Source of the DNA: Nitrospirota bacterium
GTDB lineage: Bacteria > Nitrospirota > UBA9217
Assembly: GCA_963741205.1 (NCBI GenBank)
Contig: CAVUHW010000010.1
Location: 32,001 to 96,000, forward strand
Direction: 5' to 3'
DNA length: 64,000 nucleotides
Of this stretch, positions 31,485-53,520 are shown piece after piece (position 1 is the first letter of the stretch; each line of letters opens with the position of its first letter). The notes beneath the pieces were generated by a model, which was given only the letters and a program-made list of their open reading frames with translations, did no database searches and was not told the origin of the DNA. A program made the translations under genes and the position numbers.

Positions 31485-31560
31485 GGGCCCATAGCTCAGC
31501 TGGTAGAGCTACCGGCTCATAACCGGTTGGTCCCAGGTTCGAGTCCTGGTGGGCCCACCA
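31485..31560 (+). tRNA. tRNA with CAT anticodon, most likely tRNA-Ile2 (lysidine-modified)
   Basis: 76 nt cloverleaf GGGCCCA...CTCATAA...GGTTCGAGTCC...TGGGCCCACCA; Ile-type acceptor stem and location after rpoD. Confidence 0.92.
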
Positions 31561-32989: not shown

Positions 32990-33361
32990 TCAGAGCGGGT
33001 GAGATGATCGCTCTCCGGCAACGGGGGGAGGAAAGTCCGAGCTCCGCAGGGCAAGGCGGTCCCGAAACGGGACAGGGGGCGACCCCATGGACAGTGCCAC
33101 AGAAAAGAAGACCGCCCCGATACAGGGGTAAGGGTGAAACGGTGGGGCAAGAGCCCACCAGATTCCCGGGCGACCGGGAGTGCTTGGAAAACCCCGCCTG
33201 GAGCAAGACCACATAGGGAAGCGTCCCCCGCAAGGGGGTAAGGACGGCCCGTCCGAGACTTCCGGGTAGGTCGCATGAGCCTTCGAGCAATCGGGGGCCT
33301 AGATAAATGATCATCACCCCGAGCGATCGGGGGACAGAACTCGGCTTACGGCCCGCTCTGA
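32990..33361 (+). ncRNA. rnpB: RNase P RNA (type A)
   Basis: GAGGAAAGTCC, AGTGCCACAGAAA, GGGTGAAACGG, ACAGAACTCGGCTTA; terminal P1 tcagagcggg/cccgctctga. Confidence 0.97.
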
Positions 33362-33377
33362 TTTTTTTGTTTTCACG

Positions 33378-45523: not shown

Positions 45524-46355
45524 TTCCTCCTTATGGTGGTGCTGGATGAACAGCCCTTCTTGCCTATTGTTATTTTAGTATAGCGGATTTTTTAATCTAT
45601 TGCAGCGAGCTCTTGATCACACTTTCCATCACCTTTCCGCTCACTTCTTTGGCACCCATTTCCCGTGCGATTTATCCCGCACTGTACATCGATTCCTCCC
45701 AACTCATTAACCCTGAAAAGCCGGAACCGACAAGATTGGCGATGGTGAAGAAATAAAGCGGGCTAAGGCATGATGCCCTGGAACTCTCAGTCACCGGCAT
45801 CGCCGTCAATTGTCAGCGAAAAGAAAGAAGGGCTCCTAATATAAACAGTATAGGAGTCCTTCAGTTTGTTGTGATGTGATAGGAAAGTTACCACTGGTAT
45901 TTGTTAGAGTTTAAATCTATTGAATCTTGCGACCTTGTAGTATACGCCGCAAGTTCCAACAAATGAAACTCCCGTGATAATCATTCTGTATCTGTTGACG
46001 TTGCGCTTATCCGTAAAACCCACACTTCATGTCGTCGCGCCAGGTCAAGCCTGGGAAAGGTGGTGGACCAGAAGCCGAAACCTTTCGTCGTGATTCTGTA
46101 GGTAATCAATCCTACCTGGTAAAGCCTGGTCAGCAGCCAGAAGCGAGTCTTGCATGCGCCTAGGTGACTATGTGTGTGAAGCGTAGACAGCTACTGCAAA
46201 AGCCGTGTGATTGAGCCCCGAAATAGCCTCGTGGGAGCTTTCGCCCTCGACATAGCGGGAGCAGCATCGATCGTGCAGTATTGACCTTGCACGACCGATC
46301 CTACCGGGGTCAGAGAGCAGGGCATATGCAGAAGAGGATCACCCAGGAACCTGGG

Positions 46356-48291
46356 GAAAGCGCCGGGATAAACCGGCATAGAGTAGGGAATGAAAGAGTC
46401 CTACGTGAAAGGATGAGCTGATCCATCACGGCCCCGAGTCATGCGCGGGCGGTCGCGAGGCTGCACGTGAAGCGTTGACAGGGGAAGCATAGGCCAGCCA
46501 ATGAGCTCCGAAATCACCCCTTCGGGGTGCCGACCACGTCCCAGGAACGGGAAGGCAACATGGATAACGGCGATAAACAGCCAGTCGTAGTCCGGCCCCG
46601 CGGAGTCTGAGACCCTGTGCATGTGCTTACACTCTATGTTCGAGAACCGGGAGAGCTCAGCAGTTCCTGCCGTTAAATCACATGGCGGCAGGACGGCAAG
46701 GGAAGGCCAGTGGCCGTAATCCTTGCATGCACGCTGCTGAGCAGTCTGACATCGGCGTACTACCGAAGAAGGGGCCGAACAAAATGGTGTGCTCCCATGC
46801 CATGGCGGAGGTTCTGGAGGGAAGGCTGATGACCAAGGGGAAATTCTGAAGAGTCGTCTGCGACCTGTACGCGGAGACAGGAGGAAGCATTGAACGGACT
46901 TGACAGGATACGTGAGGCAGCGGTAAGGGACAAGAAACTTCGGTTCACCAATTTGATGCATCATATCACGGATGAAATGCTCCGAGATGCCTACTCTGCG
47001 CTCAAGCGCAACGCGGCATGCCGGAGTAGACGATATGACATGGCATGAGTATGGTGAGCGCCTGGAGAGCCGGATAGCGGATCTCCATGGCCGTGTGCAG
47101 AGTGGCAGGTATCCGGGCGAAGCCCTCGAAACGGGTTTGGATACCGAAACCGGACGGTCGTCAACGGCCGATCGGCATTGCCGTGCTGGAAGATAAGATA
47201 CGTTGAACAGGCGGTGGTATGGGTACTCAATCAGATCTATGAGCAGGACTTCCTCGGTTTCAGCTACGGATTTCGACCTGAACGCAGCCAACATAACGCG
47301 TTGGATGCAATCTGGGTCGGCATCAAGCAACGGAAGGTAAAATGGGTGCTGGATGCCGACATCAAGAGCTTTTTCGACACGATAAATCATGCGTGGCTGA
47401 TGAAGTTCCTAGAGCATCGCATCGCAGACCCTCGGATGCTCCGCCTGATCCGGAAGTGGCTCAGAGCCGGGGTATCAGAGGATGGCAAGTGGTCAAGAAC
47501 AGAAGTGGGCACGCCGCAAGGGTCGGTGATATCGCCTTTGCTCAGCAACATCTACCTGCATTATGTTCTTGACGAGTGGGTACAATCTTGGCGAAAGAAC
47601 GAGGCGCACGGTGAAATGATCATCGTGCGCTACGCGGATGACTTCGTCATGGGTTTTCAGCACCTGCATGAAGCGAAACGATTTCTTGAGGAAATGAAGG
47701 AGCGATTTGCCCAATACGGCCTGGAAATCCATAGTGAAAAGACCCGACTCATCGAGTTCGGACGATTTGCGGAATCAAATCGTACTGAGCGAGGAGAGAA
47801 AAAGCCTGAAACATTTGACTTTCTTGGGTTCACGCACATTTGCAGCCGAACCCTCAAGGGCAATCATTTCACGATTCATCGTAAGACAATCGCCAAGCGT
47901 CTTCGGGCAAAGCTCAAAGAAGTGAGGGAAGAGGTCATACGCAGACGGCATGAGCCAGTACCGGTACTTGGTAAATGGCTTCGTTCAGTCGTGCAAGGTC
48001 ACCTCAACTACTTTGCGGTGCCCGGCAACACAACGGCAATTAAGGCGTTCCGCAGGGAAATCAACAAGGCATGGCTATACGCGTTGAGGCAACGCAGCCA
48101 GAAGTCCAGTTATCTACCGTGGGACCGAATCAAACTCTTAATTGCGACGTGGATACCTACAGCCATAATACTGCACCCGTACCCAAGCCAGAGGCTTCGC
48201 GTGAACTACCCGAGGTAAGAGCCGTGTGAAGTAATACTTCTCGCACGGATCCGTGCGGGGGGCGTCTGGCAACGGACGTCCCTACCGCGAT
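46356..48291 (+). mobile_element. Group II intron B (class E-like) nested in domain I of intron A
   Basis: Removing it restores GGAACCTGGG|AGGTC; DV gagccgtgtgaagtaatacttctcgcacggatc; 3' end cctaccgcgat; EBS1-like CCCAGG at 46540-46545. Confidence 0.88.
46890..48218 (+). CDS. ltrA: Intron B reverse transcriptase/maturase, no endonuclease domain; about 3 frameshifts in the 5' part
   Basis: RBS aggagg + TTG; RFTNLMHHI, IPKPDGRQRPIGI, SYGFRP, DIKSFFD, GTPQG, YADD, FDFLGF. Confidence 0.9.
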
Positions 48292-48559
48292 AGGTCTTGT
48301 TACTCCGTTTCTAAATGCCGGTGGGGATGACGGAACGAATAACTCCAGGCCTCAAGCGTCTGCGCAGAGATGTTCGAGGAGGTGCGTAATGGCACGAAAC
48401 AAAACGATCAGCGCGAGAAACGGTATCGCCAACTGAAGGAAACGAAAGGCGGCGAGATGGGAAGCAAGACGTCGTAGCGCCTTCATAGTACCGATGAGGC
48501 AGGGGAACGAATCCAATCGGACCCTGCGGAGGTAAGGGGGGCGTCATGTTGTAGAACCG

Positions 48560-49093
48560 TTGATGGGAAAGACAGAGGATGCGATGGAATCCGGAAATAC
48601 AGTCTACACGAAACAGCAACGGATAGCAGAACTCGCGAGGATTCACCCTGATGTAAGTTTCACGTCTCTCGCCCACCACATTGATTTAGTGTGGCTCTAT
48701 GAAGCATTCGGTCGAACGCGGAAGGACGGAGCGACGGGCATAGACAACGTGACAGCAGAGGAGTACGAGCAAGAGTTAAACACGAATCTGCGATCACTGT
48801 TGGAACGCGCCAAATCGGGGAAGTACTATGCGCCACCGGTACTACGGGCGCATATCCCGAAAGACCCGGCAAAGAAGGAAACCCGTCCTATCGGTATACC
48901 GACGTTCGAGGATAAGGTGCTTCAGAGGGCCTGGCAAATGGTGCTGGAGCCACTATATGAACAGGAATTTCTGGACTGCTCATACGGGTTCCGGACAGGG
49001 CGTTCCGCCCACGACGCGTTGCAATCGTTGTGGAAGCAGATGATGGATATAGGCGGATGCTGGATCATCGACCTCGATATTCGGAAGTTTTTC
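48560..49093 (+). CDS. ltrA: Intron A reverse transcriptase, 5' segment (interrupted at DIRKFF|D)
   Basis: FTSLAHHI, GIDNVT, IPK..RPIGIPTFEDK, SYGFR, DLDIRKFF. Confidence 0.9.
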
Positions 49094-49749
49094 GTGCGCC
49101 AGGGTAAGCCCGGCGCTTTCAGCGGGTGCAATTCCCGCCCCGGCAAGGGGAATGAGCCGCCTCACCGGGAATCGAGTCTTGGGCTCATGAAGGCAACGAC
49201 ATGAGTTAAGCGTAGACAGAGCGATGTCCAGGCCGTAACGCAAGTGAAGCGATAGAGCCTCGTGATACATCCGGAGGCCGACAGGGTCGAAAACCTGGAA
49301 GGCTACAGTAGGCGACGAAAAAGGGCGATGGTCGTTGGAGACTCCGGCGGGGTCTGAGAGCACGGCATGGGCAGAAACGGAAGCGTCATGGAACCTGGGA
49401 GATCCACCGCCGTCTCGGTCTGGCGTACAGACCGAGTATGTCTACCGAAAGGACCATCCTGAGGGAGAGAAACGCGACGGTGGAAGTCGGACCGCTGATA
49501 GTACTCGGAGTGCGGGAAAGCCGCATACAGGGGGAAGCGGCGGGGCAGGTTGAGTTGCTGGTCCGGGGAAACATTACCTACACTCAGAGGTAGGAGCACA
49601 ATGTCTACACAACCGGATCAGATCGATGGGTATGACGTTCACCGAACGAGTGCAACCTGGGGAGCCCGTTGCGGGAAATTCGCACGGCGGGTTCTGCGAG
49701 GGGGGACAGGCACAAGAGTACAATACTCAAGGCCTGTCCCTACCCCACC
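49094..49749 (+). mobile_element. Group II intron C, ORF-less (about 656 nt) relative of intron D
   Basis: GTGCGCCAGGG start; DI-DIII nearly identical to D; domain IV reduced to RBS plus MSTQPDQI remnant; DV gagcccgttgcgggaaattcgcacggcgggttc; ends ctaccccacc. Confidence 0.9.
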
Positions 49750-51676
49750 GTGCGCCAGGGTAAGCCCGGCGCTTTCAGCGGGTGCAATTCCCGCCCCGGC
49801 AAGGGGAATGAGCCGCCTCACCGGGAATCGAGTCTTGGGCTCATGAAGGCAACGACATGAGTTAAGCGTAGACAGAGCGATGTCCAGGCCGTAACGCAAG
49901 TGAAGCGATAGAGCCTCGTGATACATCCGGAGGCCGACAGGGTCGAAAACCTGGAAGGCTACAGTAGGCGACCGTAACAGGCGATGGTCGTTGGAGACTC
50001 CGGCGGGGTCTGAGAGCACGGCATGGGCAGAAATGGAAGCGTCATGGAACCTGGGAGATCCATCGCCGTCTCGGTCTGGTTGTCACAGACCGAGTATATC
50101 TACCGAAAGGACCATCCTGAGGGAGATAAACGCGACGGTGGAAGTCGGACCCGCTGATAGTACTCGGAGTGCGGGAAAGCCGCATACAGGGGGAAGCAGT
50201 GGGGCAGGTTGAGTTGCTGGTCCAGGGAAACATTCCCTTCACGCAGAGGTAGGAACCGAATGTCCACACAACTGGATCAGATCAAGGGGAAGGCAAAGTC
50301 GGACCCGAAGCTACGCTTCACATCACTGGCGCACCTGCTCACTCCAGCGTTTCTTAGGGAGACATGGAAACAGATGAACCGGCGTGGGGCGAGCGGAATC
50401 GATGGCGAGACGACGAAGGAGTTTGGGCAAGACCTGGACGCACGGGTTCAATCTCTGAGCGAACGCTTGAAGCAAGGGGCCTACAAGGCTCCACCGGTAC
50501 GCCGAGTGGAAATCCCCAAAGGACCTGGCAGGGAAGGGACAAGACCGCTCGGGATTCCGACGGTCGAAGACCGTCTGCTGCAAAGAGCGGTAGCTCGGAT
50601 ATTGGAAGCGGTGTTCGAGGCGGATTTCTTGGACTGCTCATATGGATTTCGGCCGGGGCGCAATCCCCACGATGCCCTGCGGACATTGCGCACGATCATC
50701 GTCACGAAGAAGGTAGGACACTTGTTCGAAGCTGATATCCGGGGATACTTCAACCACATCCAGCATGAATGGCTGCAAAAGATGGTTGCTCATCGAATTG
50801 CGGACCCGGTCATCCTGCGCCTGATTGGCAAATGGCTGAAAGCGGGCTACATGATGGGAGGAGTCGTTACGCGAACCGAGGAAGGATCGCCACAAGGCGG
50901 GCCGATCAGCCCGATCTTGGCTAACATCTACCTGCACTACGTGCTTGATCTCTGGTTTGAAAAGAAGGTCAAGCCGATGTGCCAGGGTGAGGCGTATCTG
51001 ACGAGATTTGCGGATGATTTTGTGGTGAACTTTCAATATGGCAGAGATGCGGAAGGGTTCAGGAACGAGCCTGACGGATCGATTCGAGAAATTCGGGCTG
51101 GAATTGGCGGAAGAAAAGACGCGGCTGCTGCGCTTCGGACGATTCGTACGTGCGGACCTCGCAAAGACCGGCGATAAGCCGGATACGTTTGACTTTCTTG
51201 GCTTCAAGCATGTCTGTGGTATAGACCAAGGTGGGAAGTTTGCCTTGGTGCGGATTCCGTGCGTCAAAAGCTGCCGAAAGTTCTTGGCCAAGACCAAGGA
51301 ATGGCTCAAGGGGCATATACATTGGAAGCGGCGTGACCAGCAAAGTCAGTTGAAGATGATGCTGCACGGCTTCTACCAATACTTTGGACTGCATCACTGC
51401 AAGCCGAAACTCGACATGGTACGCAGCGCAGTACAGCTCCAATGGATTCGGACGCTACGGAGAAAGAGCCAACGTCACCGACTATACTGGTGCTACCTTA
51501 ATAGCCGAGACTGGTTCAAATTACCGTATGCGGTATCAACACGCCACGCGACGGTTTGACTTTCATTCATCCATTGAGTGCAATCTGGGGAGCCCGTTGC
51601 GGGAAAGCCGCACGGCGGGTTCTGCGAGGGGGGACAGGCACAAGAGGACAACACTCAAGGTCTGTCTCTACCCACC
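49750..51676 (+). mobile_element. Group II intron D (class F-like), directly head-to-tail after C within the RT gene of A
   Basis: GTGCGCCAGGG start; RT ORF; DV gagcccgttgcgggaaagccgcacggcgggttc; ends ctacccacc, after which RT A resumes (T-M-V-H). Confidence 0.9.
50260..51559 (+). CDS. ltrA: Intron D reverse transcriptase/maturase, no endonuclease domain; frameshift near 51065
   Basis: RFTSLAHLL, RPLGIPTVEDR, SYGFRPG, DIRGYFN, GSPQGG, FADD, FDFLGF. Confidence 0.9.
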
Positions 51677-52503
51677 ATACGATGGTCCATAAACACATCA
51701 GGGAGATACTCAAGAGGCGGGTGAGTGACGGAGTAATAACGAGACTCATAGATAAGTGGTTGAAGGCCGGTGTATGGGAGGCAGGAAACATCAGTTACCC
51801 GGAAAAGGGTACTCCTCAAGGCGGCGTGATATCCCCCATGCTGAGTAATATTTATCTTCATGAGGTACTGGACCTGTGGTTTGAGAAGGAAGTAAAACCA
51901 CGCCTCCGCGGCAAAGCGTTTCTGATTCGGTATGCCGATGATGCTGTGTTGGGATTTGCAACCGAAGACGATGCCCGGAGAGTAATGGAAGTGCTTCCGA
52001 AGCGGTTTGCCCGATATGGCTTGACGATCCACCCGGAGAAGACCCGTGTGGTGAGGTTCGTAAAGCCGGAAGACATCAACTCGGGGGGCCACAGCCAGGA
52101 CAAGGATAACACGTTCAACTTTCTAGGATTCACTCACTACTGGGCAAAATCCCGTAAAGGTACAGCGGTGATCAAGCGAAGTACCGAGAAGAGCCGGTTC
52201 ATGCGAGCGCTTATGAAGATTAAGGAGTGGTGCAGAACCAATCGGCACAACCCACTGAAGGAGCAGCATAAGACGCTGAACCAGAAACTTCGAGGCCACT
52301 ACGCCTATTACGGGATCAGAGGCAACAGCCAGGCATTGGGGCACTTCTACCACAAGGTGAGACGGCTCTGGCGCAAATGGCTACAGCGAAGGTCGTGCGA
52401 TGGTAGTATCCCGTGGGATAACTTCGCACTACTTGAAAAGGTCTATCCACTTGCGCCAGCGAGAATCGTTCACTCCGCATACTTACGCAAAGCTACAGCA
52501 TGA
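51677..52503 (+). CDS. ltrA: Intron A reverse transcriptase, 3' segment
   Basis: TMVHKH, KWLKAG, GTPQGGVISP, YADD, FNFLGF, maturase X motif LRGHYAYY. Confidence 0.9.
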
Positions 52504-53520
52504 AGAACCGAATGCGTTAATCGCGCACGTTCGGGTCTGTGGGGGGCTGGGGCAGGTGACTGCCCTGGCCTACCTGGCTAACATTCAGTGCACTGATCAT
52601 CCTGAAACGAACGTTCCTAGCCTCTCGTAAAAACGTGAACTTCCTGTCGTAACTGGTACCCTTCATCCTCATCATCTCACAAGAAGGATCTCTTCCTCCC
52701 GATGATATTCTGCATTTCAAGATCCTCAACTTCAGCGTACCCCTAAATGTTGTCAGGAAAAAAGAAGCTAATAATCAGGGATTCCATGATTGACCAAATA
52801 CAATATTTCCGTCATATTTAATAAAAACACAATAACAGCCAATACAGTATCACAGTAGAACTTATGATGTCTTACATGAAAGTTGCGGAACGGTGCAATC
52901 GCACCCTGGCGTTCATGCTGTTAATCGCGACCCGCACGCTCAGTTTGACCATGTCGCCTGCGTTAGTCGACAGCGACAAGCGCATCGTGAGAGTCATGAC
53001 CCAGAACATGGATGCGGGAACAGATCTGCTGTTCTTTTTTGCCTCTCCTTAGAACCTCAGTTGCGCAAAGGAGTGTACGTAAAATTAAGTCGAAACAAAA
53101 AAAATCTGCATTCCATCAGCTTCCCGTCAGGCCTCAGTAGTATAAGCATGTCATACGCACCAAGCGATGGAAAACACGAATTGTATTGGTGATTGCATAC
53201 CGAGGAAAGAAGGGAGGTGGCGAAGAGATCGATAAGAACAGAGGCAACACGCAAGAGGCAGCAAGGATTTTCGGGAGAATGGTCTTTCGGTCATCGATTG
53301 AAGAAAAATGTGGAATTGATATGGATGTTACATTTTTATTGAAGGAGGGCATGTAACATGAAAGCAACATTCGGCAAGAGATGGGCATTTGTGGTTTTTT
53401 GATGGTTTTTGCGTTACTGGCACCATGCTGGACGTCGGCGGAAACGAAATGCCAGGGGCAAACCAGCATTGGGAAATTCGATCGGCATCAGATCAGCGGT
53501 TTGCAGCAGGGGTATGGATT

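Follow-up and report, generated by a model that had tools for sequence, protein, structure and literature searches.

A bacterial twintron within a nest of four group II introns: probably a one-off insertion through ordinary EBS1-IBS1 pairing

The intron nest and the boundaries of intron B

The subject of this analysis is a nest of four group II introns (A, B, C and D) on the forward strand of a 64,000-nucleotide stretch of Nitrospirota DNA (assembly GCA_963741205.1, contig CAVUHW010000010.1, positions 32,001-96,000), referred to below as the window, whose coordinates are used throughout. The outer intron A, which is intergenic, is interrupted in domain I by intron B and, further downstream, in its reverse transcriptase (RT) gene by the tandem introns C and D (Table 1). 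Pfam searches showed the RVT_1 domain in B, D and both halves of A and a maturase domain in the C-terminal half of A, and found no endonuclease domain in the RTs of the nest. Intron B literally parasitises another intron. It very probably represents a one-off insertion, made through ordinary pairing between exon-binding site 1 (EBS1) and intron-binding site 1 (IBS1), of a retargeted copy of its family, which forms a twintron with A and is no specialist for introns.

Intron B combines the following features: (i) a domain I-IV region matching the full model (positions 1-225) of RF02005 (group-II-D1D4-6) at 46395-46615 with 171.1 bits (cut-off 49), a ribozyme score exceeding those of A, C and D; (ii) an RT in domain IV (RVT_1, E = 5.6e-39); (iii) domains V and VI, whose RF00029 match at 48217-48291 (35.3 bits) lies under the cut-off of 40 and whose sequence, aligned with nine relatives, is conserved and typical of the family, including GGATC and CCCTACCGCGAT; (iv) a 3' end, ...CCCTACCGCGAT, of the AY type, with the domain VI adenosine 8 nt from the end (its bulge was judged by eye); and (v) an EBS1 that pairs at all six positions with the last bases of the 5' flank. 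The 5' end, GAAAGCG, does not follow the GUGYG consensus. The RF00029 match of A (52503-52578; 33.2 bits) is likewise under the cut-off.

The ends of B were placed by several comparisons. The genome has a second copy of the family (contig C9; 83% identical and lacking an open reading frame, ORF), whose homology to B starts exactly at 46356 and ends at ...CCCTACCGCGAT, and most of the matches to the B ribozyme, found in 11 of 64 genomes of the same order, begin at base 1 of B. All five homologues of A (L235, L242, L236, L237 and L238) have an empty site, in which the left flank ...GGAACCTGGG is joined directly to the right flank AG(G/A)TCTTG...; past the B site they read CCTGGG followed by AGGTCTTG, and the A sequence of 48292-49094 runs on in them without a break. 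The start of the A family (GTCGCG at 46034-46039 in A; GTCGCG or CTCGCG in the homologues) is visible in four of the five, and two of these empty-site homologues lie in a genome (G037) with nine matches to the ribozyme of B. In DNA contigs from the soil runs X1 and X2, 46355 is followed directly by 48292, so that 1936 bases with the ends GA..AT are skipped, and identical short-read contigs of runs X1, X2 and X3 read from the 3' end of B into A. Because the second copy, the order-level matches, the empty A homologues and the skipping contigs agree, the insertion of B after CCTGGG is base-exact. The precise inner insertion with intact outer flanks that characterizes a twintron is seen both in the five A homologues and in the contigs of X1 and X2.

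Table 1. Coordinates of the features of the intron nest in the window
Feature	Positions	Strand	Remarks
RF02005 domain I-IV matches	46106-46319, 46395-46615, 49129-49362, 49785-50018	+	Rfam
RF00029 domain V/VI matches	ends 48291, 49748, 51676, 52578	+	two at or above cut-off, two below
Outer intron A, whole	46034 to about 52578	+	
Outer intron A, 5' part (domain I)	46034-46355	+	starts GTCGCGCC; RF02005 at 46106-46319, 141.4 bits
IBS1 for B, CCTGGG	46350-46355	+	adjoins the 5' end of B (first base 46356)
Inner intron B, 5'-GAAAGCG...CGCGAT-3'	46356-48291	+	1936 nt; interrupts domain I of A
B helix I(i), 5' strand CCGG	46363-46366	+	RNAalifold pairing with 46647-46650, 56 family sequences
B EBS1 hairpin, GCCGAC (46529-46534)...GGAAGGC (46550-46556)	46529-46556	+	loop EBS1 = CCCAGG, 46540-46545
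Equivalent motif of B itself, GAGAACCGGGAG	46642-46653	+	helix I(i) 3' strand (46647-46650) and link to domain II
B reverse transcriptase frame	46833-48218	+	three 1-base insertions: 47018, 47114, 47202
B domains V and VI	48217-48291	+	RF00029, 35.3 bits; aligned with nine relatives
Outer intron A continued, domains II-IV and RT N-terminal part (48560-49093)	48292-49094	+	RVT_1 profile positions 1-79
Introns C (ORF-less, to about 49749) and D (from about 49750), tandem in the RT gene of A	49095-51676	+	RF02005, RF00029
Outer intron A, 3' part, rest of RT and maturase, domains V and VI	51677-52578	+	RVT_1 positions 87-204, GIIM

The second copy (L010; minus strand, about 3811-3148) is an intergenic, ORF-less derivative of about 660 nt that has lost the RT gene; domain V begins with GTGCC in this copy and with GAGCC in its relatives. 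Elsewhere, the window carries a bacterial class A RNase P RNA (32992-33363; 274.7 bits) and a tRNA gene (31485-31557), both ordinary.

Comparison by tblastn with the intact relative L013 showed that the RT frame of B is broken by +1 insertions at 47018, 47114 and 47202. All three inserted bases are absent from the covering contigs of runs X1, X2 and X4, and without them the stop-free frame measures 460 instead of 386 amino acids, the length found in the intact relative L014. The breaks would thus be errors of the assembly or else peculiar to this genome. Short-read contigs of three runs match the window except in the patch 46985-47231, where the window shows the three 1-base insertions and about nine substitutions (at six of them G in the window for A in the contigs); these differences are possibly a consensus error of assembly in a multi-copy element, and single-base features in the patch warrant caution. 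The RT of D also lies in two frames (ORFs 50209-51177 and 51038-51559, overlapping at 51038-51177), which may be the same kind of error. The view of B as a dead fossil, suggested by the broken RT, the odd 5' end and a G.A in domain V, was rejected, since the 5' end and GGAUC are norms of the family and the frameshifts are absent from independent contigs.

Pairing of intron B with its target and the nature of the target motif

The EBS1 of B, CCCAGG, pairs at six of six positions with CCTGGG, the last six bases of the flank. In the order-level relatives with a recognisable GCCGAC...GGAAGGC hairpin (11 of 11), a loop hexamer at the same offset forms at least five of six pairs with the copy's own 5' flank, for example TGAACT/AGTTCA in the second copy of the genome under study (G000), ACTACG/CGTAGT and ACGAAT/ATTCGT. 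A wider sample, obtained by searching genome contigs for the exact 21-base 5' end, comprised at least 119 stretches with 125 copies (records of the window's own or near genomes may be excluded from this search and from the junction search described below). After removal of 69 copies outside the strict hairpin pattern and one with too short a flank, 55 were left, 54 of them unique and from other phyla. With Watson-Crick and G-U pairs counted, 39 of the 54 pair at 6/6 positions, 10 at 5/6, four at 4/6 and one at 3/6, whereas mismatched controls (2816 copy/flank pairs) gave 6/6 in 0.85% and 5/6 in 4.5%, so that five or more pairs occur in 5.4% of controls as against 49 of the 54 real combinations. 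The chance match of one fixed hexamer with another is 1/4096. CCCAGG is the true EBS1 of B, and its pairing goes beyond chance. An earlier sequence-only reading of this DNA had placed EBS1 in the loop of this hairpin; family-wide covariation with the flank bears this out, as does the consensus fold of 56 family sequences (RNAalifold), which keeps the EBS1 bases in a terminal loop and does not place them elsewhere. Its positions for CCCAGG, CCTGGG, the motifs in C and D and the motif of B itself were also correct.

A candidate EBS2 (CCCC, 46517-46520), opposite flank positions -12 to -9, forms two of four pairs with the flank in A and four of four in the near relatives L012, L015 and L145. Over 47 unique copies the mean is 1.70 pairs compared with 1.60 in controls, with 4/4 in six of the 47 copies versus 3.5%, and the candidate was not used as evidence.

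The target was identified from the folds of both intron families. In the homologues of A and in C and D, RNAalifold pairs CCAGG (46040-46044 in A) with CCUGG, and GGAACCTGGGAG comprises the 3' strand of this basal domain I helix and the link to domain II; B is inserted one base 3' of the basal helix of A, at the border to domain II. The same motif, GGAACCTGGG, is present and unoccupied in C (49390-49399) and D (50046-50055), which gives three possible targets in this genome, one occupied (A) and two empty (C and D); a third GAACCTGGGAG, on contig C14, is expected by chance. The sequence-only reading had recognised the 5' flank as a conserved domain I motif left free in C and D, and both coordinates and helix folds agree with it. 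The hexamer CCTGGG itself occurs 32 times in the window (chance expectation 37.4 +/- 6.35), with one occurrence occupied and the other 31 empty. Six bases alone cannot aim an intron at ribozymes.

In the consensus fold of B, CCGG near the 5' end (46363-46366) pairs with CCGG at 46647-46650, followed by AGA and the stem of domain II, read from the sequence as GCTCAGCAG...CTGCTGAGC directly after GAGAACCGGGAG. The difference between CCTGGG and CCGGG therefore amounts to one A-U pair lost, on both strands. In an alignment of 16 copies GAGAACCGGGAG is exact in 11 and GAGAACTGGGAG occurs in one, despite quite different EBS1s. The earlier claim that B's own motif breaks the pairing with its EBS1 stands in so far as four of six pairs are formed (counted by eye), but as evolved self-immunity it fails, because CCGGG is the state of the whole family whatever the EBS1 and is compensated on the other strand of the helix. 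In B it is an inherited, ancestral helix covariation, and the folds and the alignment gave no evidence of selection against self-insertion.

Insertion sites of related introns and the origin of the twintron

The closest relatives of B, with ribozymes 73-86% identical, lie mostly at non-intron sites, each with an EBS1 fitting its own flank. The flanks of 22 order-level copies were read, and Rfam searches at 20 of these loci (all except L015 and L020) revealed no second intron around any of them. In the wider family, none of the 146 other copies is inserted at the helix I(i) 3' strand. For 11 of these 146, an automated screen detected group II sequence in the upstream 1.2 kb, an approximate count of intron-embedded copies, as the screen missed both copies at L131 that were seen by eye. 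True junctions inside other introns were found at L103, L131 (two), L133 (two), L144 (two) and L152 (two), besides a head-to-tail pair at L062; the sites lie in RT genes (after ...KIVYCKD or after ...RNDW) or in domain I (after ...GGCCCCGACCATGCGTTGG), none of them at the basal helix, and these copies stem from few genomes and are not independent. Insertion of introns into introns is thus a recurring minority habit of this class, at other places, and the lineages of L103, L131, L133, L144 and L152 are better candidates for intron targeting than B. L103 is a three-level nest, consisting of an RT gene, an intron within it and a further intron within that.

Several loci were considered as parallel cases and rejected: (i) the flanks ...GGA(A/C)CGACTGGG of L105, L133 and L139, which resemble the same domain I site, are preceded over 420 bases by integrase-like or RT coding sequence and not by a ribozyme; (ii) L035 (in G037), a possible B-type intron inside another, consists of a 63-nt 5' fragment and a full copy whose EBS1 mismatches the flank and whose 3' flank does not continue the supposed host; and (iii) the flanks of L041 and L119, examined as intron 5' ends, are an array of 65-nt tandem repeats and ordinary sequence, respectively.

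Scans for further insertions at the site of B gave the same picture. A metagenome search for the junction CCTGGG followed by GAAAGCGCCGGG returned 76 stretches, of which five continue as introns, in integrase-like or other contexts; none of the five has the context GGAACCTGGG, and the three stretches preceded by GAACCTGGG are not introns. Among 401 genomes of the phylum, the hairpin pattern with EBS1 = CCCAGG was matched in five, namely G000 and four others in which it lies in a conserved coding gene without intron features, so that no intron with this EBS1 was found there besides B. Repeated independent insertion at one site, the mark of an intron-targeting lineage, appeared in none of the searches, and C and D are unoccupied. 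The sequence-only reading had described B as an intron-specialist hyperparasite; with the insertion flanks of its homologues tabulated, most lie outside introns, and this description is largely unsupported.

The explanation we prefer, a single insertion by a retargeted family copy, would involve the following steps. B, a group II intron of the Rfam D1D4-6 type whose RT has no endonuclease domain, would have reverse-spliced once into the DNA of A, one base 3' of the basal domain I helix, creating the twintron; reverse splicing into DNA with endonuclease-independent priming would follow what is established in the relevant part of Zimmerly and Semper (2015; PMC4424553). The site would have been chosen, or would now be read for splicing, through the CCCAGG-CCTGGG pairing. 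With EBS1 changing from copy to copy in the family, B would be one of many retargeted copies, which landed in an intron by chance. B would have to be removed before A folds, in line with the twintron section of the same review. In the RNA, IBS1 would have two partners, the CCAGG of A, which is transcribed first, and the EBS1 of B, and splicing of B would become harder rather than safer; the idea of the conserved motif as a safe landing site does not sit well with such competition.

The order of events may have been different. B may have landed ectopically with imperfect pairing (retrotransposition), its EBS1 mutating only later to CCCAGG under selection for splicing, a course of events that we consider possible but doubtful. 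EBS1 does differ between relatives that are 83-86% identical elsewhere, five of the 54 copies pair at only three or four of six positions, which shows that mismatched insertions exist, and the candidate EBS2 of B forms only two of four pairs with the flank in A. The EBS2 assignment, however, has no family-wide statistical support (mean 1.70 pairs versus 1.60 in controls), no intermediate form of B is known, and one copy cannot show the order of events.

Certain observations weigh against the one-off insertion itself. Within this genome the target motif is common to two intron families, that of A and that of C/D, and mobile elements elsewhere are recognised to proliferate by inserting into conserved parts of other such elements (PMC2882425); because the motif is shared and such a strategy is recognised, selection for this site may have played a part. 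The scans relied on exact patterns (the GAAAGCGCCGGG start; the GCCGAC/GGAAGG hairpin frame), which miss diverged copies, and the 5' junction 46355/46356 is not bridged by any contig among the matches listed. In addition, the comparison with independent contigs suggests that the RT of B is probably intact in the population, and B may therefore still be active. It is conceivable that B is the founder of an intron-targeting lineage at its very start, with an RT intact in the population and an EBS1 fitting a helix strand structurally kept constant in A and C/D, and with C and D still empty only as recent arrivals, since the C/D family occurs in none of the other 63 related genomes. We give this only a slim chance; if true, one ribozyme would in nature be using the basal helix of another as its homing site.

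An established lineage specialised on other group II introns, with an EBS1 tuned to a constrained motif and its own motif changed to CCGGG, is very unlikely. Such a lineage would account for the perfect pairing at a motif common to A, C and D and for the four of six pairs at B's own motif, and it would have parallels in the intron-targeting lineages described, in the published passages on them, for Thermosynechococcus and Methanosarcina, as well as in the wider-family lineages that recur in RT genes or domain I of other introns (L103, L131, L133, L144 and L152). Yet no search produced a second case, the nearest relatives occupy non-intron sites, neither C nor D is occupied, the whole family has inherited CCGGG together with its compensation in the helix, a given hexamer is expected about 37 times per 64 kb by chance, and IBS1 would also be the partner of the CCAGG of A, in competition with the EBS1 of B, which makes it not obviously safe. 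An assembly artefact, in which repeated introns were misjoined in a metagenome-assembled genome, is scarcely credible: the patch 46985-47231, with its three 1-base insertions and clustered substitutions, does betray imperfect assembly inside a repeat family, but the insertion is base-exact against five empty sites, EBS1 matches IBS1 and contigs of three runs read identically across the 3' junction.

The GAAAGCG family and published nested introns

Introns homing into introns have been published for Thermosynechococcus, Methanosarcina and Trichodesmium, and the nested introns of Methanosarcina acetivorans were reportedly described by Dai and Zimmerly in 2003. According to the pertinent passages of Mohr, Ghanem and Lambowitz (2010; PMC2882425), the twintrons of Thermosynechococcus elongatus consist of ORF-less TeI3 introns inside TeI4 introns, with five outer introns carrying identical inner introns at one domain IV site, which lies between the first and second ATG of the ORF, and with mobility shown experimentally; B, in contrast, occupies one site, in domain I, with no repeats. 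The sections on nesting in PMC4424553 and PMC2882425 describe up to five nested introns with no coding exons in M. acetivorans, and in the former the Methanosarcina nests are put down to repeated homing at specific sites of other introns, which offer "a perpetual homing site" (Zimmerly and Semper, 2015). The present nest is similar in holding four introns, with C and D in the RT gene of A, but the homing described for Methanosarcina is repeated, cyclic and directed into intron ORFs, whereas the site of B lies in the ribozyme and was used once. In the twintron of Trichodesmium erythraeum (Pfreundt and Hess, 2015; PMC4649490), the inner intron likewise occupies domain I of a group II host, and the two introns must be spliced one after the other; that twintron lies in a gene for a conserved protein, and RNA data demonstrated its splicing, whereas the outer intron described here is intergenic and known from DNA. 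The idea of introns targeting introns is therefore already published, and B does not show the repetition at one site that defines it.

Standard group II introns have the ends 5'-GUGYG...AY-3' (PMC4424553, in the part concerned with intron ends). B resembles them in its six-domain ribozyme, RT in domain IV, EBS1-IBS1 pairing, bulged A in domain VI and 3' AU, and differs in that its family begins with GAAAGCG and the A family with GUCGCG. The GAAAGCG start is present in 20 of 22 same-order copies, some with single-base variants; the other two (L014 and L017) begin with GTGCG and are two bases shorter. All 125 copies of the wider sample begin with GAAAGCG because the search pattern required it. 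The sequence represents a real 5' splice site, since IBS1 lies directly upstream of it in copy after copy (L010-L037, L039-L157). The exact 21-base start was found in at least 119 stretches, and the phyla represented include Actinomycetota, Planctomycetota, Verrucomicrobiota, Desulfobacterota and Acidobacteriota.

Further observations concern the insertion sites of this family and of C and D. At eight loci (L050, L052, L074, L092, L115, L117, L140 and L149) family copies are inserted at the end of short tandem repeats, e.g. after aatggggacacgaagaaatggggacaacgc, and these repeats carry GGGGAC or GGGGTC some 7-11 bases before the point of insertion, which may reflect either a family preference for a repeated element or a G-rich signal resembling IBS2. 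At L041 the 65-nt repeats, upstream of position 338, each contain CCGGGATAAAACCG, like the intron's own 5' hairpin, and a family intron with EBS1 GGTTTA sits after the TAAACC of the last repeat unit. For C and D, three uninterrupted A homologues show the empty site tttttcg/atacgatgg (FFDTM), from which the inserted DNA would be TGCGCC...CACC, one base off the canonical GTGCG...CAC; their EBS1, CGAAAA, pairs at six of six positions with TTTTCG. The two introns lie head to tail with a single g or c between them (49094-49750; 51670-51680), and their family was detected in none of the 63 related genomes besides G000 (64 genomes of the family searched).

Within the nest of four introns, B in A represents a clean bacterial twintron, exact to the base and backed by empty-site controls; it illustrates a known phenomenon and displays how freely the family changes its EBS1 from copy to copy. 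A literature search, with subscription journals mostly outside its reach, turned up no paper on the GAAAGCG intron start, which is no proof of its being unpublished. The GAAAGCG family is widespread and evidently mobile, and may hold more lasting interest than the twintron itself. If this start, together with GUCGCG in the sister family, is undescribed, it would have implications for the way in which the active site positions the 5' splice site.

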